Below are positions 1-14,918 of a DNA stretch of 64,000 nt, piece by piece. A program made the position numbers and the translations under genes. Every line of letters begins with the position of its first letter. The first letter of the stretch is position 1. Where the stretch lies: NCBI GenBank assembly GCA_040771865.1, contig JAXGZF010000007.1, forward strand, positions 1 through 64,000. Direction: 5' to 3'. The notes under the pieces are model-generated. The model was not told the DNA's origin. It searched no databases and was given only the letters and a program-made list of their open reading frames with translations. This DNA is from Desulfobacterales bacterium. GTDB taxonomy: Bacteria > Desulfobacterota > Desulfobacteria > Desulfobacterales > UBA2245.

Positions 1-1
1 G

Positions 2-205
2 TACGTGCCCGGCGACAGCCTGGTAATGATGGACACCTCGAATCTGGACGACGAGGAAACGCCCGATCCGGCCGCCACGGCCATGGAGAAGAATTTCTGG
101 CTGAGGGAGTTTCTGATCACCCGGGCACAGGGCGAGCGCAATCCGTTCGAACCCACGGAAAACATCCGGATCACGATCACGGATGAAGAGACCGAGGAGG
201 CTTGA
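2..205 (+). CDS. 3' end of an upstream gene (partial); probably the C-terminus of a large secreted cargo protein
   Basis: The frame is open from the window edge (YVPGDSLV...) to TGA at 203-205 and is followed by a terminator. The acidic tail contains FWLREFL...NPFEPTENIRITI. The cargo identity is inferred from the neighbouring export genes only. Confidence 0.6.
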   Translation, partial: YVPGDSLVMMDTSNLDDEETPDPAATAMEKNFWLREFLITRAQGERNPFEPTENIRITITDEETEEA

Positions 206-237
206 GCGGCAAACATTCCGATTGTTTGTAACGATTG

Positions 238-283
238 AAAGGGAACCCGAGTCGCTCTCGTCGGCCAGGGTTCCCTTTTCTTT
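238..283 (+). terminator. Rho-independent terminator
   Basis: Inverted repeat AAAGGGAACCC (238-248) / GGGTTCCCTTT (268-278) followed by TCTTT, about 30 nt after the stop codon. Confidence 0.7.
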
Positions 284-421
284 AACAGGGTTCTGAGGCC
301 GCCATTCAGCGTTGCACGGCTCTCTCCAACGCTCACATATGCTTGAATATGCTGCGCTTGTCGCATCGCCGCGCGCCTTGCCTGACGACCTGATTCTTGT
401 TTTTCAACACCCTGTTAAAGG
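280..421. repeat. MITE/REP-like palindromic dispersed repeat, copy 1
   Basis: 11-bp terminal inverted repeat CTTTAACAGGG (280-290) / CCCTGTTAAAG (410-420). Positions 352-421 match the reverse complement of 23164-23233 at 61/70 by hand alignment. Confidence 0.75.
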
Positions 422-549
422 TTGACAGTTCGTTTGGTTTAAACGATAAATCTAAAGGCTTGGGCATATACCGCAAGCGCCGGATCTTTGGAATCGCGGG
501 ATGCTTGTGAACCGGTTTTGCCCACCCGATCAAAACAAACGGAATCTTC

Positions 550-2547
550 ATGGCCGATTGCCAGACAAAACCAAAAATTATCTGGGATGAGCGCGGGGCA
601 AATCATGTCCGGACGGATTCCTGCACCATTGTCGGGTCGCGCGAAGAAATTTCCCTGCTTTTCGGCAACGAACCGGGAGGGAATTCGGGCGATGTCCGCT
701 TTACCAATCGGGTCATTCTCAATCCCTTTACCGCAAAGCAATTGTCGTCCGTCCTGAACGGGGTGATCCGGGATTACGAAGCCGTATTTGGCCCGCTGTC
801 GGAGACGAGTCCGCATTCGACTCAGGACGATGCGACCAGGGAGCAAAAATCATCCTTTCTTTTTCAACTGGTCAAGGAGCTGGATGTTTCCGTCGGATAC
901 GAGCGGTCTTTCAAAATCCTTGAAAGGTCTCTGCTGTCCGACCGCTTTCTGCTGGGCATCAGCAAGAAGGAAATCGAATACAAGGCCCAGGACCGGATCA
1001 TCCATGCCTGCGAGCAGATGGGAATGCCGCAAAGTCTGCTGGAGATCTTCGGCCAATGCCTGGTTGAGGCCAATTACGTCCATTTCGGTTTCGAAGATGA
1101 TGGCGCATCCTGCATTTACAAGGTTTATGTTGAATTCTGGGACCGCATCAAAGAGACGCTGAAAAACCCCCAGAATGCCGCCGGGCCCCACCTGCTGCAC
1201 CTCGGCTTCAAGTGGAACCCCTTCGAACCGGAGAAAAAAGCCATCACGCGCTATACCTGGCACCCCTGGCTCACCGAAGTGCAGATCCTCGACAGGGTAA
1301 GGGCCATAGCCGATCCCGGCAGGCACGGCCATGTCTTTGAAGCAGCGAAGGCGCTGATAAACATTGCCGCGGCGCGCATGCCCCACCAGGATGTTCTTTA
1401 CCTGGAGGTCACCGAAGCGGACAACCCCAGAAAATCGTTTGACATCAACGTATACCGGGGCGGGCTTCTGGTCGGGGAACTCTATCCCTTACTGGCCAGG
1501 CTCGGCCAGCATTATAACATTCCCTATGCCCCGTTTCACGAGCTGTACAATCAGGTCAAGACGGAAAGATTCGGCCACCTTTCAGGCGGCATCAACCGGG
1601 ACGGCAAGGACTTTTGCACCGTATATTACGGTGTGGCGCCGATCCAGGAAGATCGGACTCGCCGGACCGTCTCTACCGGCTTGGGCCGGCTCCGGCATTC
1701 GGACGATCCTTTCTCGGTCGAGAAAACCGATGCCCAGGCCGGCGTTCTTCTTGAACGGGTCAGAAACCTCGGTGTGCCGTTCGGATTCGAACGTTCCTTC
1801 AAGGTTACTCAGAACATCTTTCTCCCGGATCGCTTCCTGGCCGGCTTCGAACGCAAGGAGGTGGTACAGCGGGAACGCGTTCTGGAAATCTGCCGGAACA
1901 TCAACATGCCGGCCGATTTTCTGGAGCGCTTCGAGGAGAAATATTCTGCCGCAAACATCGTTCTTTTCGGCTTTGAAAGGAACGAAAAAGGCTTCATATA
2001 CAAGGCCTATCTCGAGTTCATTGACAAACTTCAAACAGCAGTCGATGTGAACCCGGACGACCCCGAACCTTTTGAGATGTTTACCGGCTTCAAATGGGAG
2101 GGCGACGATCCGTCGCGCAAAGTTCAGACCCGCTATACCTGCTTTCCGTCCTATGTCTTGAAAGACATGGCCGATCAGACGGCGCGGTTTTTCCTCCCGA
2201 CGACAAAGACCGAACCCGCCTCAATCGTCCACGGAATACTCGATCTGGCCTCGCACAGGGCCGGGCCGCGGGAATTTCTCTATTTCGAAGCAAACGAGGC
2301 CGGCACTGACAGATCCTCGTTTTCCATCAATCTTTACCGCGCCGGGCTGCGCATGGCGGAGGCATACCCCCTGCTGCTGGACATGACGCGTTATTACGCG
2401 ATTCCGAAGGATGCATTCCACCGGGCCTATGAGGCATCCAAAACACAGATTCTGGGCAATGTTGCCGGCGGCATCGACCGGCAGGGAAGAAATTTTCTAA
2501 CCTTTTATTACGCCCACAGGGGAAGTTCGAGAAAGGGGAAGCCCTGA
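550..2547 (+). CDS. DUF3467 domain fused to two tandem ABBA-type (LynF/TruF/PatF-like) prenyltransferase-like domains
   Basis: aa 1-85 (IIWDE...REEISLLFG...RVILNPFTAKQL...YEAVFGPL) clearly align with the ORF at 6152. An internal duplication of period about 296 aa follows (YERSFK..DRFLLG / FERSFK..DRFLAG; IYKVYVEF / IYKAYLEF; GFKW; GGI.R.G..F..YY). The prenyltransferase call rests on recalled similarity. Confidence 0.6.
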   Translation: MADCQTKPKIIWDERGANHVRTDSCTIVGSREEISLLFGNEPGGNSGDVRFTNRVILNPFTAKQLSSVLNGVIRDYEAVFGPLSETSPHSTQDDATREQKSSFLFQLVKELDVSVGYERSFKILERSLLSDRFLLGISKKEIEYKAQDRIIHACEQMGMPQSLLEIFGQCLVEANYVHFGFEDDGASCIYKVYVEFWDRIKETLKNPQNAAGPHLLHLGFKWNPFEPEKKAITRYTWHPWLTEVQILDRVRAIADPGRHGHVFEAAKALINIAAARMPHQDVLYLEVTEADNPRKSFDINVYRGGLLVGELYPLLARLGQHYNIPYAPFHELYNQVKTERFGHLSGGINRDGKDFCTVYYGVAPIQEDRTRRTVSTGLGRLRHSDDPFSVEKTDAQAGVLLERVRNLGVPFGFERSFKVTQNIFLPDRFLAGFERKEVVQRERVLEICRNINMPADFLERFEEKYSAANIVLFGFERNEKGFIYKAYLEFIDKLQTAVDVNPDDPEPFEMFTGFKWEGDDPSRKVQTRYTCFPSYVLKDMADQTARFFLPTTKTEPASIVHGILDLASHRAGPREFLYFEANEAGTDRSSFSINLYRAGLRMAEAYPLLLDMTRYYAIPKDAFHRAYEASKTQILGNVAGGIDRQGRNFLTFYYAHRGSSRKGKP

Positions 2548-2551
2548 GAAA

Positions 2552-3499
2552 ATGAACCTGACGGCGCCACCGGACGCTCAGGCCATGATCGGCGGCAGGA
2601 TCGATTTCAGCAGATACTGCGTGATTTCGATATGGTTCGGTTGCAACAACAACTGCACCATCTGCATGCTCGGAGCGGTGAAAAGCGGCCTGCCGGCGAT
2701 CAGCTACGAGGGATACCGAAAGGTCGTCATCGACATCATGCGAGACGGCCGGTTCGAGAACCTGATTCTCTCGGGGGCGGAAGTGACCACCTTTGACGAC
2801 TTGGATCGCTACGTGCGGTGCGCAGCGTCCCTGGGATGGTTCAAAAGAATCCAGATCCAGACCAACGGCAGGCGGTTGCGTGATCCGGAATATCTGGATC
2901 ATCTGATCGATTGCGGGGTGAACGAGTTTTTTGTCAGCATTCACGGGCTCGCGGAAACCCATGACGCCGTCACCCGCGTTCCGGGATCATTCGGCGAAAC
3001 CCTGGCTGGGCTGAGAAATCTTTCCGGCCGCAAGGCCAATGTCATCAGCAATACGGTTTTGACCCGGAACAATTTTTCGGAAATTCCAGGCCTGGTGCGT
3101 TTCCTCTGCGCGAAGTGCGTCAGCGAGATTCATTTATGGAACTATTTTCCCATGGAATCCACCGACAAACGGAATCTGCTGGTGCCTCTCGGGGATTTGA
3201 TGAACATAGTGCCGGAACTACGGCAGATCGTTCAGGCCGCCGGCAAGCCGCTGGTGTTGAAAAGCTTTCCCCTGTGTCTGGCCGTCGAGGCGCCGGTTTA
3301 CCTGGACAGTGTATTTCCGGTGACGGTGCTTCCGGATCTCTTCTGGAAACAGTTCGGGGAGTGCGGGTTCGGAAGGTGCGTGCACCGCGAGGCCGGCGCG
3401 TGCCGTACAAAGGAGTGCTGGGGCCTTTGCAGCGCCTATCTGGCAAAATACGGCGACGAAAAAACCCTGCTTCGGCCGATAACGCCGCCCCGATTCTAG
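2552..3499 (+). CDS. Radical SAM protein with C-terminal Cys-rich extension
   Basis: CNNNCTIC (CxxxCxxC), SGAEVT (GGEP-like), IQTNG, VSIHG...HDAVTRVPGSF; C-terminal CGFGRC...C...CWGLC..Y...YG. Confidence 0.9.
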   Translation: MNLTAPPDAQAMIGGRIDFSRYCVISIWFGCNNNCTICMLGAVKSGLPAISYEGYRKVVIDIMRDGRFENLILSGAEVTTFDDLDRYVRCAASLGWFKRIQIQTNGRRLRDPEYLDHLIDCGVNEFFVSIHGLAETHDAVTRVPGSFGETLAGLRNLSGRKANVISNTVLTRNNFSEIPGLVRFLCAKCVSEIHLWNYFPMESTDKRNLLVPLGDLMNIVPELRQIVQAAGKPLVLKSFPLCLAVEAPVYLDSVFPVTVLPDLFWKQFGECGFGRCVHREAGACRTKECWGLCSAYLAKYGDEKTLLRPITPPRF

Positions 3500-3568
3500 C
3501 AGGATCCTGATAGAAGCCGCGTTTTTCAGGCGCCGTAAGCCCGCACAAAACTGAAAGGAACCGGAGAC

Positions 3569-4429
3569 ATGCCTTCGATCGAATACGAAAGCGCCCAAGA
3601 GACATTTTACGATTTTTGCCTGTGGCCGTACCGGCCGTCCGTTCCGTATGAGAACAAGTTCAAATCGGCCAATCTGCTGTTTCATTCCTTTGAGGTCGAA
3701 GGAATGGACGACCGGGGCGTCGACATGGTGCAGGCCATTCGGAAAGAAATCGGCCATTCCCGCACGGTATGGGGAGTCAAACGCCTTGGCGAGGATATTC
3801 GGTGGGAATTCTATTTTTATGACTATCGGAGAAAGGAAAGGGAAACCTCCGTCGGCAGAATCCTGAAAACGTGCAGACCTTTTTTCGCTTGCGATATCGG
3901 GATCAACGAGAATTTTCATTATTTCATGTTCTCCATCGACGTCGATCATGACCTCGTTACCGGTTCGAAGGACCTGGACGAAATTCATCTGTATATCGGC
4001 AACCCGGGCAGCAGTGTTTCCTCCGGGATCTGCTATTCCATGAAAAAGCGGCACACGCGTCTGGAGAACTTCTACTTCTTTTTCGACGCCCGAAATCAGT
4101 GGAAGGAAATCCTGGCAAAGCTGTCCTGTTCGGTTCATTACGATGCCGCCCGGTGGAAAGCCGAGCGCATCCTCTGGCCGGAACTTCAGGACTGCAAGAT
4201 CATCGTTGTCGCCAACAAGCAGGAGAACGATGCGGTTTATTTTTCGGGCATCCATGTCGATCAGCTGATCTTTTTTCTCAAGAGAATGCACTATAACCCG
4301 GAGCTGGTGACCTTTGTAGAAACCAATCGGTTCATGCTGGACCATCTGCGCTATGACATCGGGTTCGATTACCGGATTGAGGGAAACGAGATGAAGATAT
4401 TGAAAAGCGCTTATTACGGGGTGTTCTGA
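3569..4429 (+). CDS. Hypothetical protein, aromatic-rich; possible prenyltransferase-barrel fold
   Basis: 286-aa ORF with a GGAG RBS; its stop overlaps the next start (TGATG). The fold is inferred from the strand pattern only. Confidence 0.75.
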   Translation: MPSIEYESAQETFYDFCLWPYRPSVPYENKFKSANLLFHSFEVEGMDDRGVDMVQAIRKEIGHSRTVWGVKRLGEDIRWEFYFYDYRRKERETSVGRILKTCRPFFACDIGINENFHYFMFSIDVDHDLVTGSKDLDEIHLYIGNPGSSVSSGICYSMKKRHTRLENFYFFFDARNQWKEILAKLSCSVHYDAARWKAERILWPELQDCKIIVVANKQENDAVYFSGIHVDQLIFFLKRMHYNPELVTFVETNRFMLDHLRYDIGFDYRIEGNEMKILKSAYYGVF

Positions 4430-6042
4430 TGATGCCGGAGAATGAGGAACACGTAGTTCTCGTCAATGCCGAAGGCGAGGATCTCATCGATGGCGACGGC
4501 CGAATCGCAACCCTGGAAAAGCTTGCCGCCCACCTTCAGGGCCGCCGCCACCGGGCGATTTCGGTCTTCATCTTCTCATCGCGCGGAGAGGTGATGCTGC
4601 AGAAGCGGGCCGCGCACAAATACCACAGCGCCGGCCTGTGGTCCAATACCTGCTGCACCCACCCGAGGCCCCACGAAATTCCGGCCGACGCGGCCCGGCG
4701 AAGGCTGCATGAGGAAATGGGCCTCAGTTGCCCGATCGAGGAGGTTTTCACCTTTTCCTATTCGGCGGATGTAGGCAGCGGGTTGATAGAAAATGAATTC
4801 GACCACGTTTTTTTCGGGTTTTGCGACGCCTCTCCGGCAGTCAATCCGGATGAGGCGGCTGACTGGAGATGGACGCCCATCGATGAGTTGCGTACTGAGC
4901 TGGTCGCTTCCCCCGATCAATACGCGCCCTGGTTGCGGTATTGTTTTCCGGCAGTTCGAAGCCATTACTACGAGCGCCGACCCGAGGCGACCCGCGACCC
5001 GGCAGGCGACGCAGGTCGGGACCCTGTCTTCGATTATCTCTGCGTGGATGATTTTCTTCAGGATATCGTCGCTGCCCGGTCCCTGGCCACGGCTCTCGAA
5101 CTGGGCCTCATCGACCGAATCGGCCGCCATCCCGGCGTCACCCGTGAGGATATGAGCATCGCACTGCGGATCGATGCCAGAGGCATGGCGCTGCTGATCG
5201 GCCTGCTCAAGGACAACCGGGTCATCGAAGAAAACGACGGCCTCCGGCTCACCAGGTTGTTCGAAAAGGCCATGGCCTTCCGGGATGTTCTGGAGGCCAG
5301 GATCGCTTTCGCGCATGTTGCCCTGCCGGATTTTTCCCGTCTTTTTACGCCGCTGATCGCGTCGCCCGATCAGTTTGCCCGCCATGCGAAAATTTTTGAA
5401 TTTTTCGGCTACAACCGCTGTTCCGAAAACAGCCCGACGGCCCGGGAACTGACCAGCCGCTGGATGCGGATCACCACCTCCCTGACGAAGTACGAATCCC
5501 GGGTCTGTCTGAAGCATCATGACTTTAGTCCTTATCGGCGTATAATGGACATCGGCGGAAACAGCGGTGAGTTCATGCTTCGGGTGTGCCGGAAACACCC
5601 GGATATTCACGCGACTGTTTTCGATCTTCCCCTGGTTTGCGATCTCGGAATGACCCATGTTCATCGCGAGCCGGAAGCGTCGCGGATCACGTTTGTCAAG
5701 GGCAATGCCCTGCAGGATGAATTTCCCGGCACGTACGACCTGATCTGCTTCAAATCCATGCTCCACGACTGGCCCGAAAAACAGGCGGAATATTTACTTG
5801 CCAAGGCGAGCCGTTCTCTACAGCCCGGCGGGACCCTGCTGGTTTTCGAAAGGGGCGCAATCGCGGACGAAAACCCGCCTCGGTTCTATTCCACCATCCC
5901 CCTGTGCCTGTTTTTTCGGTGTTTCCGATCTCCTGAGTGGTATGCGGGGCACTTGCGCCGGCTCGGCTTTCAGAACATCCGGATCGAGGAAATCGACATG
6001 GACATGCGGTTTTCTCTGGTAACGGGAACCGCAGCCGCATAA
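4429..6042 (+). CDS. idi: Type 1 isopentenyl-diphosphate isomerase fused to a Methyltransf_2-type SAM methyltransferase
   Basis: N-terminus: HRAISVFIF, LQKRA..KYHS.GLWSNTCCTHP, RRLHEEMG, ENEFDHVF (Nudix IDI-1). C-terminus: wHTH-like dimerisation region, MDIGGNSGE, VFDLP, KGNAL, KSMLHDWP. Confidence 0.9.
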   Translation: MMPENEEHVVLVNAEGEDLIDGDGRIATLEKLAAHLQGRRHRAISVFIFSSRGEVMLQKRAAHKYHSAGLWSNTCCTHPRPHEIPADAARRRLHEEMGLSCPIEEVFTFSYSADVGSGLIENEFDHVFFGFCDASPAVNPDEAADWRWTPIDELRTELVASPDQYAPWLRYCFPAVRSHYYERRPEATRDPAGDAGRDPVFDYLCVDDFLQDIVAARSLATALELGLIDRIGRHPGVTREDMSIALRIDARGMALLIGLLKDNRVIEENDGLRLTRLFEKAMAFRDVLEARIAFAHVALPDFSRLFTPLIASPDQFARHAKIFEFFGYNRCSENSPTARELTSRWMRITTSLTKYESRVCLKHHDFSPYRRIMDIGGNSGEFMLRVCRKHPDIHATVFDLPLVCDLGMTHVHREPEASRITFVKGNALQDEFPGTYDLICFKSMLHDWPEKQAEYLLAKASRSLQPGGTLLVFERGAIADENPPRFYSTIPLCLFFRCFRSPEWYAGHLRRLGFQNIRIEEIDMDMRFSLVTGTAAA

Positions 6043-6151
6043 AACCGCATAAAAGATTGATGTTACCGAAAAAAAAGCATATAAAGAGAACGTTTACAGC
6101 TCGTTTGGATCAACTCAAACCACTTCAAAAATCCAAAAAGGAGGAATACCC

Positions 6152-6490
6152 ATGGCAGATCAGAAAGATGAGAATGTCGATAAAACAGGGCAGGCGGCCG
6201 GCCAGCCCCGAATCGTCTGGGATGACGCCAACATGCGAAGCGTTTACTGCAATGTTTCCAATGTTGCCGGCGGTCGCGAAGAAATCGTGCTGCTTTTCGG
6301 CATGAACCAGGCCTGGCATGCGGGGCAGAAAGAGATCAAGGTCCAGCTTTCCGACCGGATCGTGATGAGTCCCTTTGCCGCCAAACGGCTGTCACTCCTT
6401 TTGAACAACGTGCTGGCGGATTATGAAAAGCGCTTCGGAAGACTGGACATTGGTGTTCCCCAGGCACCGCCATCGACCACCATCCAGTAA
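6152..6490 (+). CDS. DUF3467 family protein
   Basis: IVWDDANMRSVYCNVSNV.GGREEIVLLFG...RIVMSPFAAKRL...YEKRFGRL; strong RBS AAGGAGG. Confidence 0.85.
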   Translation: MADQKDENVDKTGQAAGQPRIVWDDANMRSVYCNVSNVAGGREEIVLLFGMNQAWHAGQKEIKVQLSDRIVMSPFAAKRLSLLLNNVLADYEKRFGRLDIGVPQAPPSTTIQ

Positions 6491-6498
6491 AATACCAG

Positions 6499-6527
6499 GG
6501 GGCTTCCGGGCCGGAAGCCCCTTCTTT
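6499..6527 (+). terminator. Intra-operon hairpin/terminator after DUF3467
   Basis: GGGGCTTCCGG (6499-6509) / CCGGAAGCCCC (6511-6521) followed by TTCTTT. Confidence 0.65.
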
Positions 6528-6574
6528 CATCGCTTCGACAAACAATATTCTGTGATTACAGGCACGGCTCGCAT

Positions 6575-8482
6575 ATGAACCAGAACACTGCAGATCGCAA
6601 CGAAACTCGTTTGCTGGAAAGTCCGGACGGATCGGCGTCGAGACCGGTATCCGACCAAGATTCTCTGTTCTGGCAACATTTTGCTCAGGCCAAGACTCCC
6701 AAGGCCTTCTGCCAGAGCTGGCTGCCCCTGCAATGCGGCATGTTGAGAAGCGTCAAGCACGCCATTGTGCTGATAGGAAACCCCGACCAAGGTCCTTACA
6801 CTCCGGTCGCGGTATGGCCGGATGCCAAACTCAGCATGAGCCACCTTGCCGGAACCGCCGAACGCTCCATCCGCGAAAGACGCGGCCTGCTGGTGGACAA
6901 AAACGGCGGCCCCCCTGCCGTCAAGGGCGCTTCCGAAACCTGCCAGATTGCCTATCCCATCGAGGTGGCCGGCAAGATTCACGGCGTGGTCGTCATGGAA
7001 GTCGAAGCGCCTTTCAAACAGGACGTCCAGGCCCTGATGCGCCAGCTCCACTGGGGCGCCGCATGGCTCGAGGTTCTCATCCGGCGCAGGGAGTCGGCCC
7101 GGAACGCGGAAGAAAGCGAACGGCTTCGCAACGTCATGGACCTGACGGTCAGCATGGTGGAGCATGATCAATTCTATCCCTCCGCCATGGCCTTGGTCAC
7201 CCGTCTGGCCACGGTGCTGGACTGCGACCGGGTCAGCCTGGGAGTGCTCAAGGGCAACCATGTCAAGGTCGCGGTGTTGAGCCACAGCGCGGATTTCAGC
7301 GAACAGACCAACCTCGCCCGGGCCATCGGTCTGGCCATGGACGAAGCCGTCGATCAGAAGGCCGCGATCAACTACCCTGCCGGACCCGAAGAGAGCCCCC
7401 TTTTCACGCGTGCCCACGCGGAACTTGAACGGCTGATGGGCTCCGGTTCGATTCTGACCATTCCTTTGGTGGAAAACGAGTGCATCATCGGCGCATTGAC
7501 CCTTGAACGCTCCGCGCAAAAGCCTTTTGACCGACAGACGGTGGAATTCTGCCAGAGCGCGGCCGGCATTCTGGCGCCTATTCTGGAGATCAAGCGGCGG
7601 GAGGATCGCTGGCTGATCCGCAAGGCGTCCGAATCCCTGTCGATACAACTGAAACGATTTCTGGGTCCGGGATATCTGATCCGAAAGCTGGTCGCCGCCG
7701 CACTGATTGTCCTGGTCGTATTTTTCGCTCTGTTCAAGGTCGATTATCGGGTAACCGCGGACAGCGCCATCGAGGGCGAAGTCAAAAGGGCGATCGCCGC
7801 CCCGTTCAACGGCTACATCAAAGAGGCGCCCATCCGGGCCGGGGACGTGATCATGAAAGGACAGGTAATCTGCCTCCTGGATGACCGGGACCTGAAGCTG
7901 GAACGTTTCAAATGGGCCACCGAACGGGAGCAGACGACCAAACAGTACCACGAAGCCATGGCCAAGCACGATCGGCCCAACATCCAGATCACGAAGGCCA
8001 AGATCGGTCAGGCCGAGGCACAGATCGATCTGCTGGATGAACAGCTTTCACGCATCAAGATGACGGCCCCCTTCGATGCGGTGGTGATCAGCGGAGATTT
8101 GAGCCAATCGCTGGGCGCCCCGGTCGAGCGGGGCCAGGTGCTCTTCGAGGTGGCCCCTCTGGACGAGTATCGCGTGATCATCGAGGTCGACGAACGGGAT
8201 ATCGCCGACATTCAGGTGGGTCAGAAAAGCGAATTGATCTTTCCCTCCATTTCCGGAGAGACCTTTCCCTTTATCGTGCGGAAAATCACGCCGGTAACCA
8301 TTTCCAGGGAGGGTCGCAACTATTTCCGCGTGGAAGGACAGCTCGAGAAGGCGACCGAGCGCCTGCGGCCCGGCATGGAAGGTGTGGGAAAAGTCACCGT
8401 GGATCGGCGGCGGCTGATCTGGGTGTGGAGCCACAAGGCAATCGACTGGGTACGCCTCAAACTGTGGCAATGGATGCCCTGA
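6575..8482 (+). CDS. GAF-domain HlyD-family membrane fusion (periplasmic adaptor) protein
   Basis: GAF-like region (CDRVSLG...AMDEAVDQ...ILTIPL...IGALTLER), one TM helix, lipoyl half-motifs (APFNGYI...GD; APFDAVVISGD...GAPVERGQVLFEVA), LRPGMEG. Confidence 0.85.
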   Translation: MNQNTADRNETRLLESPDGSASRPVSDQDSLFWQHFAQAKTPKAFCQSWLPLQCGMLRSVKHAIVLIGNPDQGPYTPVAVWPDAKLSMSHLAGTAERSIRERRGLLVDKNGGPPAVKGASETCQIAYPIEVAGKIHGVVVMEVEAPFKQDVQALMRQLHWGAAWLEVLIRRRESARNAEESERLRNVMDLTVSMVEHDQFYPSAMALVTRLATVLDCDRVSLGVLKGNHVKVAVLSHSADFSEQTNLARAIGLAMDEAVDQKAAINYPAGPEESPLFTRAHAELERLMGSGSILTIPLVENECIIGALTLERSAQKPFDRQTVEFCQSAAGILAPILEIKRREDRWLIRKASESLSIQLKRFLGPGYLIRKLVAAALIVLVVFFALFKVDYRVTADSAIEGEVKRAIAAPFNGYIKEAPIRAGDVIMKGQVICLLDDRDLKLERFKWATEREQTTKQYHEAMAKHDRPNIQITKAKIGQAEAQIDLLDEQLSRIKMTAPFDAVVISGDLSQSLGAPVERGQVLFEVAPLDEYRVIIEVDERDIADIQVGQKSELIFPSISGETFPFIVRKITPVTISREGRNYFRVEGQLEKATERLRPGMEGVGKVTVDRRRLIWVWSHKAIDWVRLKLWQWMP

Positions 8483-8526
8483 CCGGCTGATGGCGGCAAA
8501 AAGCAAAAGATGAAGACCGAACGCCC

Positions 8527-10674
8527 ATGACCGATTCCCTCTACAGCCCTTCCTGGTATCGTGTGGCAAGCCTGAAGCCACGCCTTCGGGGACATGTGCA
8601 GATTCATCGCCACCACTACCGCGGCGAACTCTGGTACGTGCTCCAGGATCACCTGTCCGGCCGCCTTCAGCGGTTTACGCCTATGGCCTATCAGCTCATC
8701 GGAATGATGGACGGCAAGCGGACCGTGCGGGAGATCTGGGAGCATGCCTGCGCCACGCTTCAAGCCGACGCGCCGACCCAGGAGGACATGATCCGCATCC
8801 TGAGCCAGCTCCACGCCGCCGATGCCCTGCAGTCGGACGTGGTTCCAGACACCGCCGAAATGCTGAAACGGTTCGAAAAGCAGCGCTACAAGAAGTGGAA
8901 GCAAAACCTGCGCAGCCCGTTGTTCATGCGGTTTCCCCTGCTCGATCCGGAACGGTTTCTGATCAGATTTCAATTCCTGGTACACCCCTTTTTCAGCTGG
9001 TGGGGACTGATCCTCTGGCTGGCGGTGGTAAGCGCGGGCGTCTTTCTGGTCGGCGTTCACTGGTCCGAGCTGACGCTGAACATGACCGACCGCATCCTCT
9101 CTCCCGGCAACCTGGTGGTCATGTGGTTGACCTTTCCTTTTCTCAAGGCCTTTCACGAATTCGCCCACGCCTTTGCCGTCAAGCTCAAAGGCGGCGAGGT
9201 GCACGAGATGGGGATCATGATGCTGGTGTTCACCCCCATCCCCTACGTGGATGCATCGTCCGCTTCCGGATTCCGGGAAAAGCGCAGCCGCGTGTTCGTG
9301 GGCGCGGCCGGACTGATGGTGGAAATCTTCATCGCGGCCCTGGCTGTTTTCGCCTGGGTCAACATGGAACCCGGCCCGGTCCGCTCCGTGGCCTACAACG
9401 TCATCTTCATCGCCGGCGTCTCATCGCTGTTCTTCAACGGCAACCCGCTGCTGCGCTATGATGCATACTACGTTCTGTCAGATGTCCTGGAAATTCCGAA
9501 TCTCGGGACCCGAGGCATCCGATACATGCTCTATCTGATCCAGCGCTACCTTCTCGGCATCAAGCAGGCCGAACCGCCCCTTTACAGCCAAGGCGAGCGC
9601 TTCTGGTTCGCTGCATATACCATTTCTTCGACCATCTACCGGCTCTTCGTCTATGCGGCCATCATCCTCTTCGTAGCCAGCAAATTTTTCTTCATCGGCG
9701 TTCTTTTCGCCTGCGTGGGAGTGGTAAACATGTTCGCCCTGCCGGCTTACAAAGCCGTCAAATTTCTATCCACTTCGCCGATGCTGGCCCGCACCCGTCC
9801 CCGGGCGGTTCTGGTGACAGGACTGATCGTCGTCCTTGGAGCGGCCATGATCGGCATCGTTCCGGTTCCCCTGGCCACCCTGACCGAAGGCGTGATGTGG
9901 CTGCCGGAAGAAACTTTCGTACGTGCCGGAACTGATGGGTTCGTAGAACGCATCCTCGCCGAGCCGGGCAAACCGGTGAAACGCGGTGACCCGCTGGTCG
10001 AATGCTCCGACCCGCTGCTGCCGGCCCAGATCCGTCTCCTGGAGGCTCAGAAGCGCGAGATGGAAGTAGTCTACGATACGCATTTGATTTCCGACAAGGT
10101 CAAGGCCGAAATTGCCAGAGAAGAAATCGAACACATTGCCGTCAAGCTCGAAGATGCCCGGGAAAGACTGGGTGATCTGACGATCCACAGCAGCACGGAC
10201 GGAATCTTCATTCTGCCGATGGCCGACGATCTGCCGTCCTCGTTTGTCCAGCGCGGCCGGTTGATCGGCTATGTGGTGAGCCGTTCCACGGTGTCCGCCC
10301 GGGTCGTGGTTTCCCAGGCAGATGTGGATCTGGTGCGGCAGCGAACCCGTCAGGTCAGCGTGCGGCTGCCGGAGCAGCTGTCGAAAATCCTGCCGGCGGA
10401 GCTGCAGCGTGAGGTTCCGGCGGCCACGGATCAGCTCCCGGGCATGGTTCTGAGCCAGGAAGGCGGGGGCAAGATCGCGACCGACCCCCGCGAGGGTTTC
10501 GGCAACAAGGCGTTTCAGAAAATCTTTCTTTTCGACATCACCCTCCCCTCCCATGCGGGTATCTATCATGTCGGCGGAAGGGTGCATGTCCGGTTTGATC
10601 ACGGAATGGAGCCGATCGGTTTTCGATGGTACAGGGGGTTGCGGCAGCTGTTCCTGAAGAGGTTCAATGTATAG
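8527..10674 (+). CDS. M50 (site-2) metallopeptidase with N-terminal PqqD-like domain and C-terminal HlyD-like domain
   Basis: HEFAH (HExxH), FNGNPLLRYDAYY, several TM helices; N-terminal MDGKRTVREIW...ILSQL; C-terminal lipoyl/coiled-coil adaptor pattern. Confidence 0.85.
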   Translation: MTDSLYSPSWYRVASLKPRLRGHVQIHRHHYRGELWYVLQDHLSGRLQRFTPMAYQLIGMMDGKRTVREIWEHACATLQADAPTQEDMIRILSQLHAADALQSDVVPDTAEMLKRFEKQRYKKWKQNLRSPLFMRFPLLDPERFLIRFQFLVHPFFSWWGLILWLAVVSAGVFLVGVHWSELTLNMTDRILSPGNLVVMWLTFPFLKAFHEFAHAFAVKLKGGEVHEMGIMMLVFTPIPYVDASSASGFREKRSRVFVGAAGLMVEIFIAALAVFAWVNMEPGPVRSVAYNVIFIAGVSSLFFNGNPLLRYDAYYVLSDVLEIPNLGTRGIRYMLYLIQRYLLGIKQAEPPLYSQGERFWFAAYTISSTIYRLFVYAAIILFVASKFFFIGVLFACVGVVNMFALPAYKAVKFLSTSPMLARTRPRAVLVTGLIVVLGAAMIGIVPVPLATLTEGVMWLPEETFVRAGTDGFVERILAEPGKPVKRGDPLVECSDPLLPAQIRLLEAQKREMEVVYDTHLISDKVKAEIAREEIEHIAVKLEDARERLGDLTIHSSTDGIFILPMADDLPSSFVQRGRLIGYVVSRSTVSARVVVSQADVDLVRQRTRQVSVRLPEQLSKILPAELQREVPAATDQLPGMVLSQEGGGKIATDPREGFGNKAFQKIFLFDITLPSHAGIYHVGGRVHVRFDHGMEPIGFRWYRGLRQLFLKRFNV

Positions 10675-12664
10675 AGACATGACCCATCCGTGGGGGTTGG
10701 ACGGCGTTTATCCCGAACGGGAGGAACGTCGCAGCTCCGGAAAGGTTCACGGCCGTTCGACCGGTCTGGAAGGCTTTCGCGCCCGCCGGCGGCGGCCTAG
10801 TCCTAAAAGCGGCCAATGGATCGTTGAGGCCGTCAAGACAGGCCAATCCACACTGAGCGATGCGACCGACGAGGAAATTCTCGAGGCGGCCCGCCAGTTG
10901 CGACCTCTGCTGAAAAAGCAGGGACTGACGCAGGAACTGGTGGGCCGGGCCTTCGGGCTGGTACGCGAAGCCTCCTGGCGGCACTTGCACATGGCGCATT
11001 TCGATGTCCAGTTGATCGGCGGATGGGCGCTGCTCAACGGCATGGTGGCGGAGATGGAAACCGGGGAAGGGAAAACCCTGGTCGCCTCCCTGCCGGCCTG
11101 TACCCTGGCGCTGGCCGGAGTGCCGGTGCACATTATTACGGTCAACGATTATCTGACCGCCCGCGATGCCGACTGGATGTCTCCTCTGTACAAGGCACTA
11201 GGGCTGACTGTGGGGACCATTGTTCACGGCAAGGACCCGGCAGCCCGGAAGGAAGCCTATCGCTGCGATATCACCTACTGCACCAACAAGGAGGTGGCTT
11301 TCGATTATCTGAGAGACCGGCTTGTGCTTTCGGACCGTCCCAGTCAGCTGCGTCTTTCGGTGGAGCGGTTGTATGGCGAGACGTCGCGCCTCTCCAGGCT
11401 GGTGATGCGCGGGCTTCACTTCGCCATCGTGGATGAGGCCGACAGCGTGCTGATTGACGAGGCCCGGACCCCTCTGATCATTTCCAGCCAGTCCGACAGC
11501 CTTTACGGCGAGAATGTCTACCGGCTGGCCATGGAGCTGGCCGGATCACTGGTCGATGGAAAGGATTTTCTGGTTTCCGAAACCGATCGCATGGTGGAGC
11601 TGACGCCGGCGGGCCGGCTCAAAATCGATGGCACAGATTGGGCCGAAGCCAGCCCCAACATCAATGAACAGCAGAAGGAGCAGCTCGTCCGTCAGAGCCT
11701 GACCGCATTGCATCTGTTCAAGCGGGACAAGCAGTACCTCGTCAAGGACGGCAAGGTTCAGATCGTCGACGAGTATACCGGACGTCTGATGGCGGACCGT
11801 TCCTGGGAGATGGGGCTTCACCAGCTCATCGAGGTCAAGGAGGGATGCGAGGTGACCCTGCCCAAGCAGACCCTGGCGCGCATCAGTTATCAGCGGTTTT
11901 TCAGCCGATACCTGGGTCTTGCCGGCATGACCGGAACCGCTCGGGAAGTGGCCGGTGAGCTCTGGTCGGTCTATCGTATGCCAGTGATCTCCATCCAGAC
12001 CAACCGACCTGTCCGGCGCCGGTATCTGCCCGACCGGATCCATGCCTCGTCGGATGAAAAATGGAGAGCTGTGGTGCAGACTATTTCACGGGAGCATGCC
12101 GAGGGCCGGCCGGTGCTCGTGGGAACCCGGTCCGTCGAAGCCTCCGAGCATCTGAGCGGCCTTCTGGAACAGGAAAATCTGCCCCACAAGGTGCTCAATG
12201 CCCGGCAGGACAAGGAGGAAGCGGAAATCATCGCCATGGCCGGAAATGTGGGACGGATCACCGTGGCCACCAACATGGCCGGACGGGGGACGGATATCCG
12301 CCTGAGCGAGGGTGTTACGGACCTGGGCGGGCTCTTTGTCATCGCCACCGAACGCCATGAAGCCCAGCGGATTGATCGACAGCTCTTCGGCCGCTGCGGC
12401 CGGCAGGGAGATCCCGGCGCCTGCGTCGCCATGGTTTCTCTCGATGACGAGCTGGCCACCGTGCATGCCAAGGGAGTGCCCAGGTGGATCGGTATCCTGG
12501 CGGCCAAAACCGGCATCGAATTCCTGTCGAGATGGGCGGGCGCCCTGGTATTCTGGTACGCACAACAATCGGCGCAGCGCCAGTACGCGCGCATACGTCG
12601 CAACCTGCTGAAAATGGATGACCGGATCGGCGAGTCCCTCGCCTTTTCGGGTCGACCCGAGTGA
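10667..12664 (+). CDS. Secondary SecA-like (SecA_DEAD) ATPase, lacking the canonical C-terminal wing/scaffold
   Basis: EMETGEGKT, TVNDYL..RD, FDYLRD, IVDEADSVLIDEARTPLIIS, GMTGTA, VATNMAGRGTDI, RIDRQLFGRCGRQGDPG; only 665 aa. Confidence 0.9.
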   Translation: MYRDMTHPWGLDGVYPEREERRSSGKVHGRSTGLEGFRARRRRPSPKSGQWIVEAVKTGQSTLSDATDEEILEAARQLRPLLKKQGLTQELVGRAFGLVREASWRHLHMAHFDVQLIGGWALLNGMVAEMETGEGKTLVASLPACTLALAGVPVHIITVNDYLTARDADWMSPLYKALGLTVGTIVHGKDPAARKEAYRCDITYCTNKEVAFDYLRDRLVLSDRPSQLRLSVERLYGETSRLSRLVMRGLHFAIVDEADSVLIDEARTPLIISSQSDSLYGENVYRLAMELAGSLVDGKDFLVSETDRMVELTPAGRLKIDGTDWAEASPNINEQQKEQLVRQSLTALHLFKRDKQYLVKDGKVQIVDEYTGRLMADRSWEMGLHQLIEVKEGCEVTLPKQTLARISYQRFFSRYLGLAGMTGTAREVAGELWSVYRMPVISIQTNRPVRRRYLPDRIHASSDEKWRAVVQTISREHAEGRPVLVGTRSVEASEHLSGLLEQENLPHKVLNARQDKEEAEIIAMAGNVGRITVATNMAGRGTDIRLSEGVTDLGGLFVIATERHEAQRIDRQLFGRCGRQGDPGACVAMVSLDDELATVHAKGVPRWIGILAAKTGIEFLSRWAGALVFWYAQQSAQRQYARIRRNLLKMDDRIGESLAFSGRPE

Positions 12665-12673
12665 CGGAGTTAA

Positions 12674-13510
12674 ATGATGTTCAAGCGCATGACAACCCTA
12701 TTACAAGCCGCGATTTTCCTGTTGATGCTTCTTGGCGGGGCCGCCGGATTTGCGTCAGCCGACAGTTCCGAGCCCGAGTTCGACGGGCTCATCGAACCAT
12801 ACCGGGTGGCGGAAGTGGGCAGTGAGGTGCCCGGCATCCTCGACAGCGTCAAGGTCGAACGCGGCGACATGGTCAAAGCGGGCCAGGTGGTGGCGACGCT
12901 GCGCTCGGGCGTCGAGGCGGCCAATCTGGAGCTGGCCAAAGCCCGGGCGGAAATGGATGCCAATGTCCAGTTGAAGCGTTCGGCTCTGGAATTTGCGAAA
13001 AGAAACAGCCAGCGCATGAAAGAACTGTATGATGCCAAGGCCCTGGCCTTTCAAAAATGGGACGAGGTGGAAACCCAGCGGATCATGGCTGAAAAGGAAC
13101 TGACGGTTGCCCTGGAACAGAAACAGCTCTTCGAGCTGGAACACCGACAGGCCGATGAACTGCTTAGACGCAAGACGATTCAGAGCCCGTTAACAGGCGT
13201 GGTTATGGAGCGCTACCTTTTCAAGGGGGAGTATGTTGAAAACAATCCGATCCTCAAGATCGCTCAGATCAATCCGTTAAACGTAGAAGTGGTGATGCCG
13301 GTTTCACAGATCGGCAGAATCAAAATCGGCACAAAAGCCACGGTAAAGCCCGAAGACCCCTTGGGCGGGACGCGTCAGGCGGTCGTCACCATCGTGGACA
13401 AGGTGATGGACGCGGCCAGCGGCACCTTCGGAGTGCGTCTGGAAATCCCCAATCCAATGCATGAAATTCCGCCAGGCTTGAAATGCAGGGTGCTTTTCCA
13501 AAAACCCTGA
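12674..13510 (+). CDS. Efflux RND/HlyD-family periplasmic adaptor subunit
   Basis: N-terminal signal peptide, VERGDMVKAGQVVA, coiled coil, IQSPLTGVV, DAASGTFGVRL...PGL. Confidence 0.9.
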   Translation: MMFKRMTTLLQAAIFLLMLLGGAAGFASADSSEPEFDGLIEPYRVAEVGSEVPGILDSVKVERGDMVKAGQVVATLRSGVEAANLELAKARAEMDANVQLKRSALEFAKRNSQRMKELYDAKALAFQKWDEVETQRIMAEKELTVALEQKQLFELEHRQADELLRRKTIQSPLTGVVMERYLFKGEYVENNPILKIAQINPLNVEVVMPVSQIGRIKIGTKATVKPEDPLGGTRQAVVTIVDKVMDAASGTFGVRLEIPNPMHEIPPGLKCRVLFQKP

Positions 13511-13586
13511 TTCCACCCTGCCCCGGTCCTCCGGCGCCTGGAGGAAAATTGATCATTATGAAGCCATCAAGCAGAGGAAATCGAAA

Positions 13587-14918
13587 ATGAGCCCTAAAAC
13601 AGCCCTTATGCTGATCATCACCGCTGTTTGGCTGCCCCTGATCGTTCCACCTCAGGAGGCTGCGGCCACGGAGACGCATGAGCCACAAATCTACACCCTG
13701 GAAGCAACCATCGCCGAAGCTCTGAAAAACAACTGGGACCTCAAGGCCCTGGAAGAAAAATTAACCCAGGCCCAGGAGGTGAAAAAACAGGCCAGAGCTG
13801 ATTTCCTGCCCCGTTTAAAGACCAGTTACTCCTATACCGGACTCGATGAGCCCTCCAATTACGAATCGAGCTATGGCGGAAACATCGCCGTCAGCTCCAG
13901 AGAGAGTTTCCAGTGGCGCAGCACCGTAACACAGCCGATTTTTGCGGGATTCGGTCTGATCAGCGCCTATCGACTCGCCGAACTGGGCATCGACCAGTCT
14001 GAAATGCAAATCGAGTTGAACAAGCTGGATCTCGCCCTGAAGGTCAAGGAAGCCTATTTCGGTGTGCTGGTCATGGATAAAACCGTCGAGGTGGCCCTGA
14101 AAGAAGTCGAATCTCTCGCCTCCAATGCCGAGGTGACCCGAAGCTACTACAATGCCGGGGTGGTGCCGGTCAACGATCTGCTCAAGGCGGAGATGGAGCT
14201 TGCCGACGCCCAGCAAAAACTGGTCCAGGCCCGAAACCAGGCGGCTCTGGCCCGCTCTGCCCTCAACATCATCCTGGCCCGCCCGGTCAACGCGGCGGTC
14301 GATCTCGAGGATATCCTGGTGTATACCACCGAGACGGCTGTCTTCGAAGACAGCATCGGTATTGCCCTGAAAAACCGGCCGGAAATCCGGCTCATCGACA
14401 TCGATCTTCAGCGCGCCGAGCAGAAGATCAGGCTAACCAGGCGCGGATACTATCCGGAGGTCAACCTGGCGTATGACTACATCAAAGAGGGTGACTCGGC
14501 CGACGTGTCCGGAAGCCTATATCATGACGAAAAACGGTGGCAACTCGCGGTGGCCGCTTCCTGGACCTTGTGGGAATGGGGTAAAACCCACTTTGCCGTA
14601 AGGCAGGAAGAAAGCGCTCGTGAAGAGCTCATCAAGACCCGCAAGGCCATTGAAGACAACGTTCGGCTGGATGTGCGGGAAGCCTTGCTGTACATTTCAA
14701 CCGCCGAACAGAACATCCCCACCACCGAGAAGGCCGTGTTGCAGGGTGAGGAGAACCTGAGAGTCACCCAGGAAGGCTACCGTGCCCAGGTCAATACCGT
14801 CTCCGACGTGTTGGATGCCCAAGCCTTGCTGACCCAGGCCAGAGTCAACTATTACAAGGCCATGTACACGCACAGCCTGGCCAAAGCCCAGCTGTCGCGG
14901 GCCATGGGAACCTATTGA
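13587..14918 (+). CDS. TolC-family outer membrane channel
   Basis: Signal peptide, YTLEATIAEALKNN, ARADFLPRL, QPIFAG, ALKNRPEI, YYPEVNL, DVLDAQ; duplicated OEP pattern. Confidence 0.9.
   Translation: MSPKTALMLIITAVWLPLIVPPQEAAATETHEPQIYTLEATIAEALKNNWDLKALEEKLTQAQEVKKQARADFLPRLKTSYSYTGLDEPSNYESSYGGNIAVSSRESFQWRSTVTQPIFAGFGLISAYRLAELGIDQSEMQIELNKLDLALKVKEAYFGVLVMDKTVEVALKEVESLASNAEVTRSYYNAGVVPVNDLLKAEMELADAQQKLVQARNQAALARSALNIILARPVNAAVDLEDILVYTTETAVFEDSIGIALKNRPEIRLIDIDLQRAEQKIRLTRRGYYPEVNLAYDYIKEGDSADVSGSLYHDEKRWQLAVAASWTLWEWGKTHFAVRQEESAREELIKTRKAIEDNVRLDVREALLYISTAEQNIPTTEKAVLQGEENLRVTQEGYRAQVNTVSDVLDAQALLTQARVNYYKAMYTHSLAKAQLSRAMGTY

Follow-up and report, generated by a model that had tools for sequence, protein, structure and literature searches.

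RTX (repeats-in-toxin) toxins are activated by the acyltransferase HlyC, which lipidates the cargo in the cytoplasm before it is exported through HlyB-HlyD-TolC. We analysed a locus at the start of a 64,000-nucleotide stretch of DNA from a Desulfobacterales bacterium (assembly GCA_040771865.1, contig JAXGZF010000007.1, positions 1 to 64,000; hereafter the window) in which, as in the HlyC system, a presumed lipidation of an RTX-repeat cargo would precede export via a HlyD-type adaptor and TolC. Unlike that system, an isoprenoid is proposed instead of an acyl chain, the window locus has neither a HlyC-like gene nor an ATP-binding cassette (ABC) transporter, and a SecA-like ATPase together with an M50-HlyD fusion replaces the HlyB-type ABC protein. 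As judged by comparison across genomes, the locus is built of two modules, an exporter and an enzyme cassette, which are real, conserved and uncharacterised. Fusions physically link the parts: DUF3467 to barrels of the ABBA (alpha-beta-beta-alpha) prenyltransferase fold, one type of barrel (A-type) to the other (C), a radical SAM (S-adenosylmethionine) enzyme to C, and an isopentenyl diphosphate (IPP) isomerase (IDI) to a methyltransferase. The best reading of the locus is an isoprenoid tailoring of the giant cargo before export, to which we give slightly less than an even chance.

The window opens contig C7 of its genome (G000; 2.98 Mb in 13 contigs) and covers 64 kb of it. Its genes are called A to J in order, and L and G numbers denote fetched loci and genomes, respectively. 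Comparisons were made over 80 loci, the best 80 of 189 relatives of C on one-genome-per-species contigs, onto which the window proteins were mapped by tblastn; 36 of them are shorter than 15 kb, and one (L084, genome G499) comes from a genome flagged unpublished, on which the counts that include it partly rest. The open reading frame (ORF) listing of the window gave eleven + strand genes across positions 2-14918, with intergenic gaps of -8 to 110 nt except for 344 nt behind the 67-aa tail:

2-205, + strand: cargo tail, 67 aa, open at its 5' end; the 3' end of the giant gene, cut by the contig start
550-2547, + strand: gene A, DUF3467 and two predicted ABBA prenyltransferase-fold barrels, 665 aa (Pfam, AlphaFold2, Foldseek)
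2552-3499, + strand: gene B, radical SAM enzyme with a C-terminal Cys cluster, 315 aa (PF04055)
3569-4429, + strand: gene C, predicted third ABBA-fold barrel, 286 aa, no Pfam model (AlphaFold2, Foldseek, VIA-align)
4429-6042, + strand: gene D, type-1 IPP isomerase fused to a Methyltransf_2 methyltransferase, 537 aa (NF002995, Pfam)
6152-6490, + strand: gene E, stand-alone DUF3467 protein, 112 aa (PF11950)
6575-8482, + strand: gene F, GAF, one transmembrane (TM)-like segment and HlyD-type periplasmic adaptor, 635 aa (Pfam/NCBIfam)
8527-10674, + strand: gene G, PqqD-like N-terminus, M50-like membrane metalloprotease and HlyD, 715 aa (Pfam/NCBIfam, motifs)
10667-12664, + strand: gene H, truncated SecA paralogue, 665 aa: nucleotide-binding domain 1 (NBD1), preprotein cross-linking domain and NBD2 (Pfam)
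12674-13510, + strand: gene I, small membrane-fusion/adaptor protein, 278 aa (HlyD_D23, RND_mfp)
13587-14918, + strand: gene J, TolC-family outer-membrane channel, 443 aa (OEP)

This layout agrees with the initial annotation, made from the window alone, which had listed eleven co-oriented genes with these domains (ORF listing, Pfam, NCBIfam) and placed an IDI-methyltransferase and a radical SAM enzyme among the inserted genes (Pfam, NCBIfam). A 122-aa minus-strand ORF at 1-366 matched no Pfam or NCBIfam family, is probably not a gene and was treated as spurious; the true upstream gene is the + strand tail.

For the cassette, the closest described enzymes are the cyanobactin F-family and other peptide-acting ABBA enzymes (PagF, LimF, KgpF, DciF and PirF; FunA), whose prenyltransferase-barrel fold is common to the models of A and C and which are among their top structural matches. 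Their targets are Tyr, Trp, His or Arg residues in ribosomal peptides, with dimethylallyl diphosphate (DMAPP) or geranyl diphosphate as the prenyl donor, and the accessible part of a 2026 review distinguishes three classes of peptide/protein prenyltransferases, none with a giant secreted substrate (PMC13290415). A and C differ from them in lying outside their sequence families; moreover, the locus lacks cyanobactin precursor and protease genes, two or three barrels are found here in company with radical SAM and methyltransferase enzymes, and what they presumably act on is a protein thousands of residues long.

The exporter has several partial counterparts. With the HExxH intramembrane metalloproteases of daptides and other ribosomally synthesised and post-translationally modified peptides (RiPPs), G shares the HExxH motif, a match to NF041824 and a weak N-terminal PqqD, but it differs in carrying a fused HlyD periplasmic domain and in having no short precursor gene that we could find. 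H carries the NBD1, preprotein cross-linking domain, NBD2, Walker A and DEAD motifs of SecA and SecA2, as a second copy beside a SecA homologue on contig C5, whereas its operon partners are HlyD-, M50- and TolC-type proteins and not SecY2 or Asp proteins. Campylobacter fetus has an S-layer type I secretion operon, SapCDEF, whose SapC corresponds to PF07277; genes of the SapC family adjoin the cassette in 19 of the 80 loci, where TolC and a giant are often present as well, although the window itself has no SapC. A 2026 preprint on the giant proteins of Chlorochromatium ties SapC, TolC and HlyD to giant cargo, and in its accessible part the terms 'prenyl' and 'radical SAM' have 0 occurrences each (10.64898/2026.03.19.712371). 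Our literature search returned no description of the enzyme cassette or of the exporter module, and no relevant work on DUF3467 or on IPP methyltransferase-IDI fusions.

Predicted prenyltransferase folds of A and C

Pfam and NCBIfam recognise only DUF3467 in A (residues 7-84, Pfam) and 0 families in C. Apart from DUF3467, A is made of two repeats of ~270 aa that are 36% identical to each other (E 2e-58), and in the AlphaFold2 model (pLDDT 84, 36-sequence alignment) each repeat consists of five beta-hairpins flanked by helices. When this model was compared with the PDB by Foldseek, 96 matches were obtained at E<=0.001, those listed being all ABBA/DMATS prenyltransferases, with PagF, FunA, PriB, DMATS, LimF, KgpF and DciF in the lead; a PDB sequence search using A returned nothing relevant. 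C belongs to a family of which 1,404 relatives were found across phyla, typically 50-65% identical. Its model (AlphaFold2, pLDDT 93) has FamD1, AmbP1, AmbP3, LimF and KgpF as leading Foldseek matches, and VIA-align superimposed it on AuraA over 247 of 286 residues (Z 13.4, rmsd, the root-mean-square deviation, 4.2), 50 of the 50 listed entries being prenyltransferases. On these predicted models, the repeats of A and C belong to the ABBA superfamily, whose fold is a ten-stranded antiparallel barrel of five alpha-beta-beta-alpha units, and the claim of up to three prenyltransferase barrels in the locus is borne out at the level of the fold (AlphaFold2, Foldseek, VIA-align).

The alignments of both families contain invariant Lys, Arg, Tyr, Glu and Asp at alternating strand positions of the predicted models; these alternating charged and aromatic residues would therefore line an active-site lumen. 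A and C were also considered as sequence homologues, and this was rejected (hhalign probability 0.3%; BLASTP only E 0.013, over the last hairpin). Fusions of an A-type protein with C and of a radical SAM enzyme with C occur among the longer relatives of C, PF04055 being present in 11 of the 30 long relatives listed, and in 22 ORFs of the 80 loci DUF3467 is joined to one or two A-type barrels. Another protein, P0102, is a two-barrel relative of A without DUF3467 whose source label is Methanothrix, an archaeon.

The radical SAM enzyme and the isomerase-methyltransferase

B is a member of the radical SAM superfamily, with 64 bits to PF04055 against a cut-off of 29.5 (2e-17) and the cluster motif CxxxCxxC present as CNNNCTIC at residues 31-38. 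Five Cys are found within residues 271-293; no SPASM match was obtained with Pfam at E<=0.01, and every NCBIfam maturase model scored far under its cut-off. The IDI part of D reaches equivalog level with NF002995 (151.3 bits against 127, residues 4-171), stays slightly under the cut-off of TIGR02150 (101.5 against 105.8 bits) and matches E. coli IDI structures at 2e-23 over residues 6-169; the methyltransferase part belongs to Methyltransf_2 (3e-24). By tblastn there is no second match to the IDI part in G000, and Dxr, an enzyme of the methylerythritol phosphate (MEP) pathway, is encoded in the window. The fusion of IDI to a methyltransferase is confined to this clade, and the initial annotation's reading of IDI as the DMAPP supply of the cassette is not supported as it stands: IDI is a local add-on, found in 2/80 loci.

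An exporter operon without an ABC transporter

E is a DUF3467 protein (PF11950, 7.5e-22) with an AGGAGG ribosome-binding site and an AT-rich upstream region. Directly behind its stop lies a GC-rich hairpin with a 10-bp stem, followed by a T-rich tract (6499-6521, in the region 6488-6530); this arrangement resembles an attenuator by which E would be made in excess of the exporter. The homologues of E have a highly conserved core of ~80 aa and tails of 2-15 variable residues with no common acceptor residue. In G000, DUF3467 is present in two copies only, both at this locus, and it heads operons in which the exporter stands without the enzymes (see below); for these reasons we regard it as a component of the exporter operon. 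It is also found in control genomes of Thermus, Bacteroides and Methanosarcina. The idea that DUF3467 is a SecB-like chaperone was dropped because no support was found: when 20 DUF3467 sequences were compared, profile against profile, with 4 of the SecB family, the probability was 0.6% (E 0.09), the DUF3467 profile had 0 matches among PDB sequences, where E alone returned nothing relevant, and an Atlas search with DUF3467 returned DUF3467 clusters only. A complex prediction of E with the 67-aa cargo tail scored 0.00, which speaks neither for nor against binding.

F combines GAF and HlyD (Pfam, NCBIfam). In G, HlyD was matched, while PqqD (20.3 bits) and M50 both fell under their cut-offs; the daptide_HExxH model NF041824 aligned over residues 18-405 (4e-39) with 134.8 bits against a cut-off of 300, which leaves G outside that family. 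Five TM-like segments were counted in the protein, and its HExxH motif reads HEFAH (residue 210). H matches SecA_DEAD (4.7e-103), PP_bind (1.3e-25) and P-loop_SecA (1.6e-56) in Pfam and has a Walker A motif TGEGKT at 132 and DEAD at 256. It misses all SecA and SecA2 equivalog cut-offs (best PRK12904, 628.8 bits against 814), its 665 aa being compared with a full length of ~800-900 aa; the SecA homologue on contig C5 is 43% identical to it. I matches HlyD_D23 (3.9e-20) and RND_mfp (116.8 bits, over the cut-off of 94.9), and J matches OEP (1.4e-58) and, under the cut-off, type_I_sec_TolC (5e-40).

Several elements of classical type I secretion are thus present, namely HlyD-type proteins (F, G and I), a TolC-type factor (J, OEP) and, in a relative, an RTX cargo (HemolysinCabind). 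The energiser of such systems is missing, since no gene of 550-14918 matched ABC_tran or ABC_membrane in Pfam. The operon of DUF3467, GAF-HlyD, PqqD/M50/HlyD, SecA-like ATPase and adaptor looks like an undescribed power source for export across two membranes without an ABC transporter.

The giant cargo and its C-terminal tags

In the relative G401 (locus L005), whose A protein is 91% identical to that of the window, the gene upstream of the cassette is an open frame of 12,340 aa, with another frame, of 5,897 aa, farther upstream along that contig. The last 2,209 residues of the 12,340-aa frame contain RTX (HemolysinCabind) and Calx-beta repeats, and its end is 80% identical to the window's 67-aa tail. 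The expected giant upstream gene is therefore seen as an RTX-type frame in this relative, the window's own copy being cut by the contig start; this giant RTX gene is presumed to encode the cargo of the exporter. Contig C8 of G000 (positions 3-72521, minus strand) carries three tandem giant frames of 6,782, 9,444 and at least 7,505 aa, the last of which leaves the contig end, and two of the three giants end in a 67-aa tail 79-84% identical to that of the window. Because its siblings on C8 share this tail and the frame runs off the contig, the truncated frame of at least 7,505 aa is probably the body to which the window's tail belongs, and the end of C8 probably joins the start of the window.

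The tail has the motif W-x3-F ... NP ... I-x-I. A relaxed expression of this tag matched only C-termini of giant frames, in L005, L008, L011, L024, L025, L040, L053 and L072 and in two of the C8 giants, with no match in the other frames of at least 300 aa of G000, a 3-Mb genome. When a profile of the tail was run against the phylum sample (401 genomes of the window's phylum), three genomes were hit: G000, G243, which has the cassette, and G142, which has the exporter only and no match to C; in G142 the tagged tail ends directly before E. The cargo of L039, L070, L098, L099, L107 and L108 ends in a second conserved class of tag, VAG-x2-GW ...(20-30 aa)... RRF-x-[KR]-W, and a Trp is invariant in both classes. 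Tags thus occur also in genomes without the cassette, and would therefore mark the cargo for export, not for modification; a cassette-specific modification site at the C-terminal tag was rejected, the tag ending the cargo in the cassette-free exporter locus of G142.

Elsewhere in G000, at C6:400009-411438, another TolC-like gene adjoins a frame of at least 2,897 aa that runs to the contig end; the two may form a second giant-protein export locus.

The cassette across genomes

Records bearing C belong, by their titles, to Desulfobacterota, Methylomirabilota, Planctomycetota, cyanobacteria, Beta-, Gamma- and Alphaproteobacteria, Acidobacteriota and others. Of the 80 loci, 71 have the radical SAM enzyme, 61 the methyltransferase and 59 the A-type barrel, and 42 have the complete set of four cassette genes; for the exporter, the corresponding numbers were 11 for G, 13 for F and 9 for H. 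Seven diverse loci were scanned with Pfam. Nostoc has an RTX giant (at least 2,005 aa), SapC, methyltransferase, radical SAM enzyme, ABBA and C, and on the other strand two ABC transporters (one with a C39 domain) and HlyD; Anabaena has SapC, methyltransferase, radical SAM enzyme, ABBA and C; in Synechococcus, methyltransferase, radical SAM enzyme, ABBA and C are followed by DUF3467 and a 2,967-aa RTX/M10 protein; and Sulfuritalea has methyltransferase, C, radical SAM enzyme, SapC, TolC and a giant. In two other loci of the seven, genes for a WelO5-like oxygenase, a Trp halogenase and a B12-binding radical SAM enzyme are added. Counted over all loci, the neighbours are SapC (19/80), a TolC-like protein (16/80), a 208-aa protein without a Pfam match (16/80; L076:10846-11472 and 15 other loci), Trp halogenase (11/80), a WelO5-like Fe/2OG enzyme (9/80) and B12-radical SAM (9/80). 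The additions of WelO5-like enzymes, FAD-dependent Trp halogenases and B12-radical SAM enzymes (L047, L059 and others) give these loci a peptide-tailoring flavour.

Stop-free frames of at least 2,000 aa, all cut by the locus end, were present in 22/80 loci and in 19 of the 44 loci of at least 15 kb, compared with 26 of 558 control windows of 20.8 kb in G000, itself a giant-rich genome. Fourteen giants were scanned, 7 of which gave RTX and/or DUF4347 and 7 no family; the possibility that the neighbouring giants are non-ribosomal peptide synthetases (NRPS) or polyketide synthases (PKS) was discarded, with 0 of the 14. One giant family rich in A, G, T and V is found in 20 loci, where it starts just after the cassette or after SapC-TolC. 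Neighbourhood Pfam content and frame-length counts thus tie the cassette to giant secreted proteins across phyla, as had been supposed.

A short precursor gene was looked for as well. Clustering of the ORFs of at least 40 aa from the 80 loci gave no recurrent small family besides DUF3467 and the 208-aa protein, although very short or divergent ORFs could escape such clustering, and the intergenic gaps of the window's cassette held no candidate. The earlier statement that no short precursor ORF accompanies the cassette was thus upheld, in the sense that none is recurrent.

The exporter without the enzymes

In the phylum sample, C is present in 4/401 genomes and the PqqD-M50 part of G in 35/401, of which 10 at E<1e-100; three of the four genomes with the cassette are among these ten. 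Nine regions with close G orthologues were compared. The order F, G, H was kept in 9/9 and I was present in 7/9, not in L097 or L101; DUF3467 lies directly before F in 6/9 (L095, L096, L098, L099, L107 and L108), sometimes in two copies. In L098, L099, L107 and L108 a giant frame of at least 2,301 aa comes to its stop shortly before E, and L096 has a tagged tail at an exporter-only locus. Exporter-only loci thus keep the order giant, DUF3467, F, G, H, I.

Conversely, the N-terminus of G was found in 28/40 and 32/40 of the genomes with the cassette, that is in 60/80 (51 at E<1e-100; 59/79 and 50/79 without the unpublished G499/L084), to be compared with the base rate of 35/401 (10/401 strong), which comes from a single phylum, whereas the 80 genomes come from many and relatives are not independent. 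The association of enzymes and exporter that the initial annotation had predicted therefore stands at the level of the genome; that annotation had also held that enzymes lying mostly away from the exporter would speak against it, and, if this is read as adjacency, only 11/80 loci have the two side by side. The description of the cassette as embedded in an exporter locus is valid for this lineage only. In the four cyanobacterial genomes, which have no match to such an exporter, the cassette stands beside RTX giants, SapC or ABC-type parts.

Other features of the window

One element outside the system lies between the cargo gene and A:

293-418, no strand: dispersed intergenic repeat of ~126 bp (blastn copies)

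It has inverted ends, and 87 blastn matches of 73-98% identity were obtained over the 13 contigs of G000. In metagenome contigs it reaches a very high summed depth, and loose ends are seen on either side of it; it also occurs in contigs of RNA libraries; an Rfam scan of 150-600, which covers the repeat, gave no match. The DNA of G000 is nearly complete in two anaerobic-digester runs of one study. Contigs from the RNA libraries of two runs of the same study lie on the cargo tail and on E, F, G and H and none on 550-6042, an absence of cover that proves nothing; the cover that is seen may in turn stem from DNA present in RNA libraries. Further along, a 665-aa protein without a Pfam family (20446-22443) is found beside a 328-aa TIR-domain protein (23282-24268), and the two may be a defence-type pair.

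Discussion

Starting from the observed gene order, folds, family memberships, fusions and co-occurrence, we infer that the cargo would be covalently prenylated and propose the following course of events. The exporter module would be dedicated to moving giant RTX-type proteins across the whole envelope: H would push the unfolded cargo, and G, F and I would form the inner-membrane and periplasmic conduit to J, with the conserved C-terminal tag of the cargo acting as sorting signal and the HExxH site of G possibly cleaving it. In this lineage the cassette of A, B, C and D sits between the cargo gene and E. The IDI half of D would raise the level of DMAPP from MEP-derived IPP, and the barrels would transfer a C5-type prenyl group to the cargo while it is still unfolded, with the side chains of Trp, Tyr, His or Arg as candidate acceptors by analogy with the peptide-acting ABBA enzymes, while the methyltransferase and the radical SAM enzyme may elaborate the donor or the adduct. 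DUF3467, which is fused to A and is the same module as at the head of the exporter operon, could recruit the enzyme to either the cargo or the export machine. As a result, a giant surface protein would be lipidated or decorated before export, according to the logic of HlyC acylation and with isoprenoid chemistry.

Several findings weigh against this tailoring of the cargo. The ABBA fold of the A and C models is no proof of transferase activity; curated aromatic, DMATS and cyanobactin prenyltransferase models (Pfam, NCBIfam) match neither protein, and the two families are not detectably related by profile comparison, so that the relation predicted between them is structural only. The IDI part is present in only 2/80 loci, those of the nearest relatives, and the nearest solved relatives of the methyltransferase of D are the small-molecule enzymes DtpM, DsyB and DnrK. 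As regards the link to export, the cassette adjoins this exporter in only 11/80 loci, 20/80 genomes with the cassette, including all four cyanobacteria, have no match to G, and the base rate used for comparison is that of one phylum. Giants are not seen everywhere either: 58/80 loci, many of them on short contigs, are without a frame of at least 2,000 aa, and at 1,000 aa or more the excess is weak (41/80 loci against 173/558 control windows). Finally, the tags are also found in the cassette-free G142, L098 and L099.

Part of this evidence would suit a cassette that makes a free small molecule (a prenylated and methylated aromatic compound, an amino acid, a short non-ribosomal product or a lipid) needed by the giant or exported with it, and not attached to it. 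Most characterised ABBA/DMATS enzymes among the structural matches indeed act on small molecules, the closest solved relatives of the methyltransferase belong to natural-product pathways, the IDI-methyltransferase fusion suits a metabolic line, Trp halogenase and WelO5-like genes are typical of small-molecule pathways too, and in 69/80 loci the cassette is not adjacent to the exporter. We nevertheless consider a free product unlikely: no NRPS, PKS or terpene synthase scaffold genes were found in the loci examined, fusions of the A-type barrel to DUF3467, a protein module from an operon for polypeptide export, recur, and the constant neighbours are giant structural proteins and accessories of type I secretion systems. 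The substrate might also be a small protein or peptide, either E as a leader-like domain with a short C-terminal tail or an unannotated short peptide; the PqqD-like domain of G would recognise this substrate and the M50 site of G would cut it, with export in the manner of a RiPP. The resemblance of G to the daptide metalloprotease (4e-39) with its PqqD-like N-terminus, the strong ribosome-binding site of E and the hairpin and T-rich tract behind it, as often in precursor genes, the one or two tandem copies of E ahead of the exporter, and the RiPP-like character of the B12-radical SAM and halogenase additions are all consistent with such a substrate. It becomes improbable when one considers that the E core of ~80 aa is highly conserved and its tails of 2-15 variable residues have no common acceptor, that 22 ORFs have DUF3467 joined to the enzyme itself, that no other recurrent small ORF family emerged from the clustering over the 80 loci and that DUF3467 also occurs in the Thermus, Bacteroides and Methanosarcina control genomes.

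As to the barrels themselves, they could, instead of being transferases, serve to bind or chaperone the giant repetitive cargo or an isoprenoid lipid, the methyltransferase and the radical SAM enzyme then acting independently, for instance in protein methylation. Curated prenyltransferase families match neither barrel, IDI is absent from 78/80 loci, and the 50-65% identity of family C between phyla is more conservation than a tailoring enzyme usually shows. Against these points stand the alternating invariant charged and aromatic residues on the strands, as expected of a lined active-site lumen, the IDI fusion in this clade, which points to the use of DMAPP, and the fusion of barrels to a radical SAM enzyme, so that non-catalytic barrels seem to us very improbable.

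Isoprenoid tailoring of the giant cargo before export thus remains the best available reading, and the initial annotation, which had put forward such a role, is partly supported: its structural part was right, and its functional part stays unproven. Isoprenoid attachment to giant surface proteins before export is hereby suggested for some bacteria, in which it has not yet been described. A broader claim, which we regard as possible and rather doubtful, is that many phyla covalently prenylate giant RTX-type surface proteins by a multi-barrel ABBA complex with a radical SAM enzyme and a methyltransferase, docked to the cargo or the export machine by DUF3467, and that Desulfobacterota and others export them through a hitherto undescribed machine of SecA-like ATPase, M50-HlyD and TolC; if so, a full-length protein would for the first time be seen to be prenylated endogenously in bacteria, the isoprenoid acting as anchor or decoration, and type-I-like secretion would have a new class of energiser. 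If the cassette modifies the cargo, two large families without a Pfam or NCBIfam match, as well as DUF3467, would gain a function, and new catalysts of peptide and protein prenylation would become available. Protein prenylation would then extend from the CaaX proteins of eukaryotes and small bacterial peptides (ComX, cyanobactins) to the giant surface proteins of bacteria.

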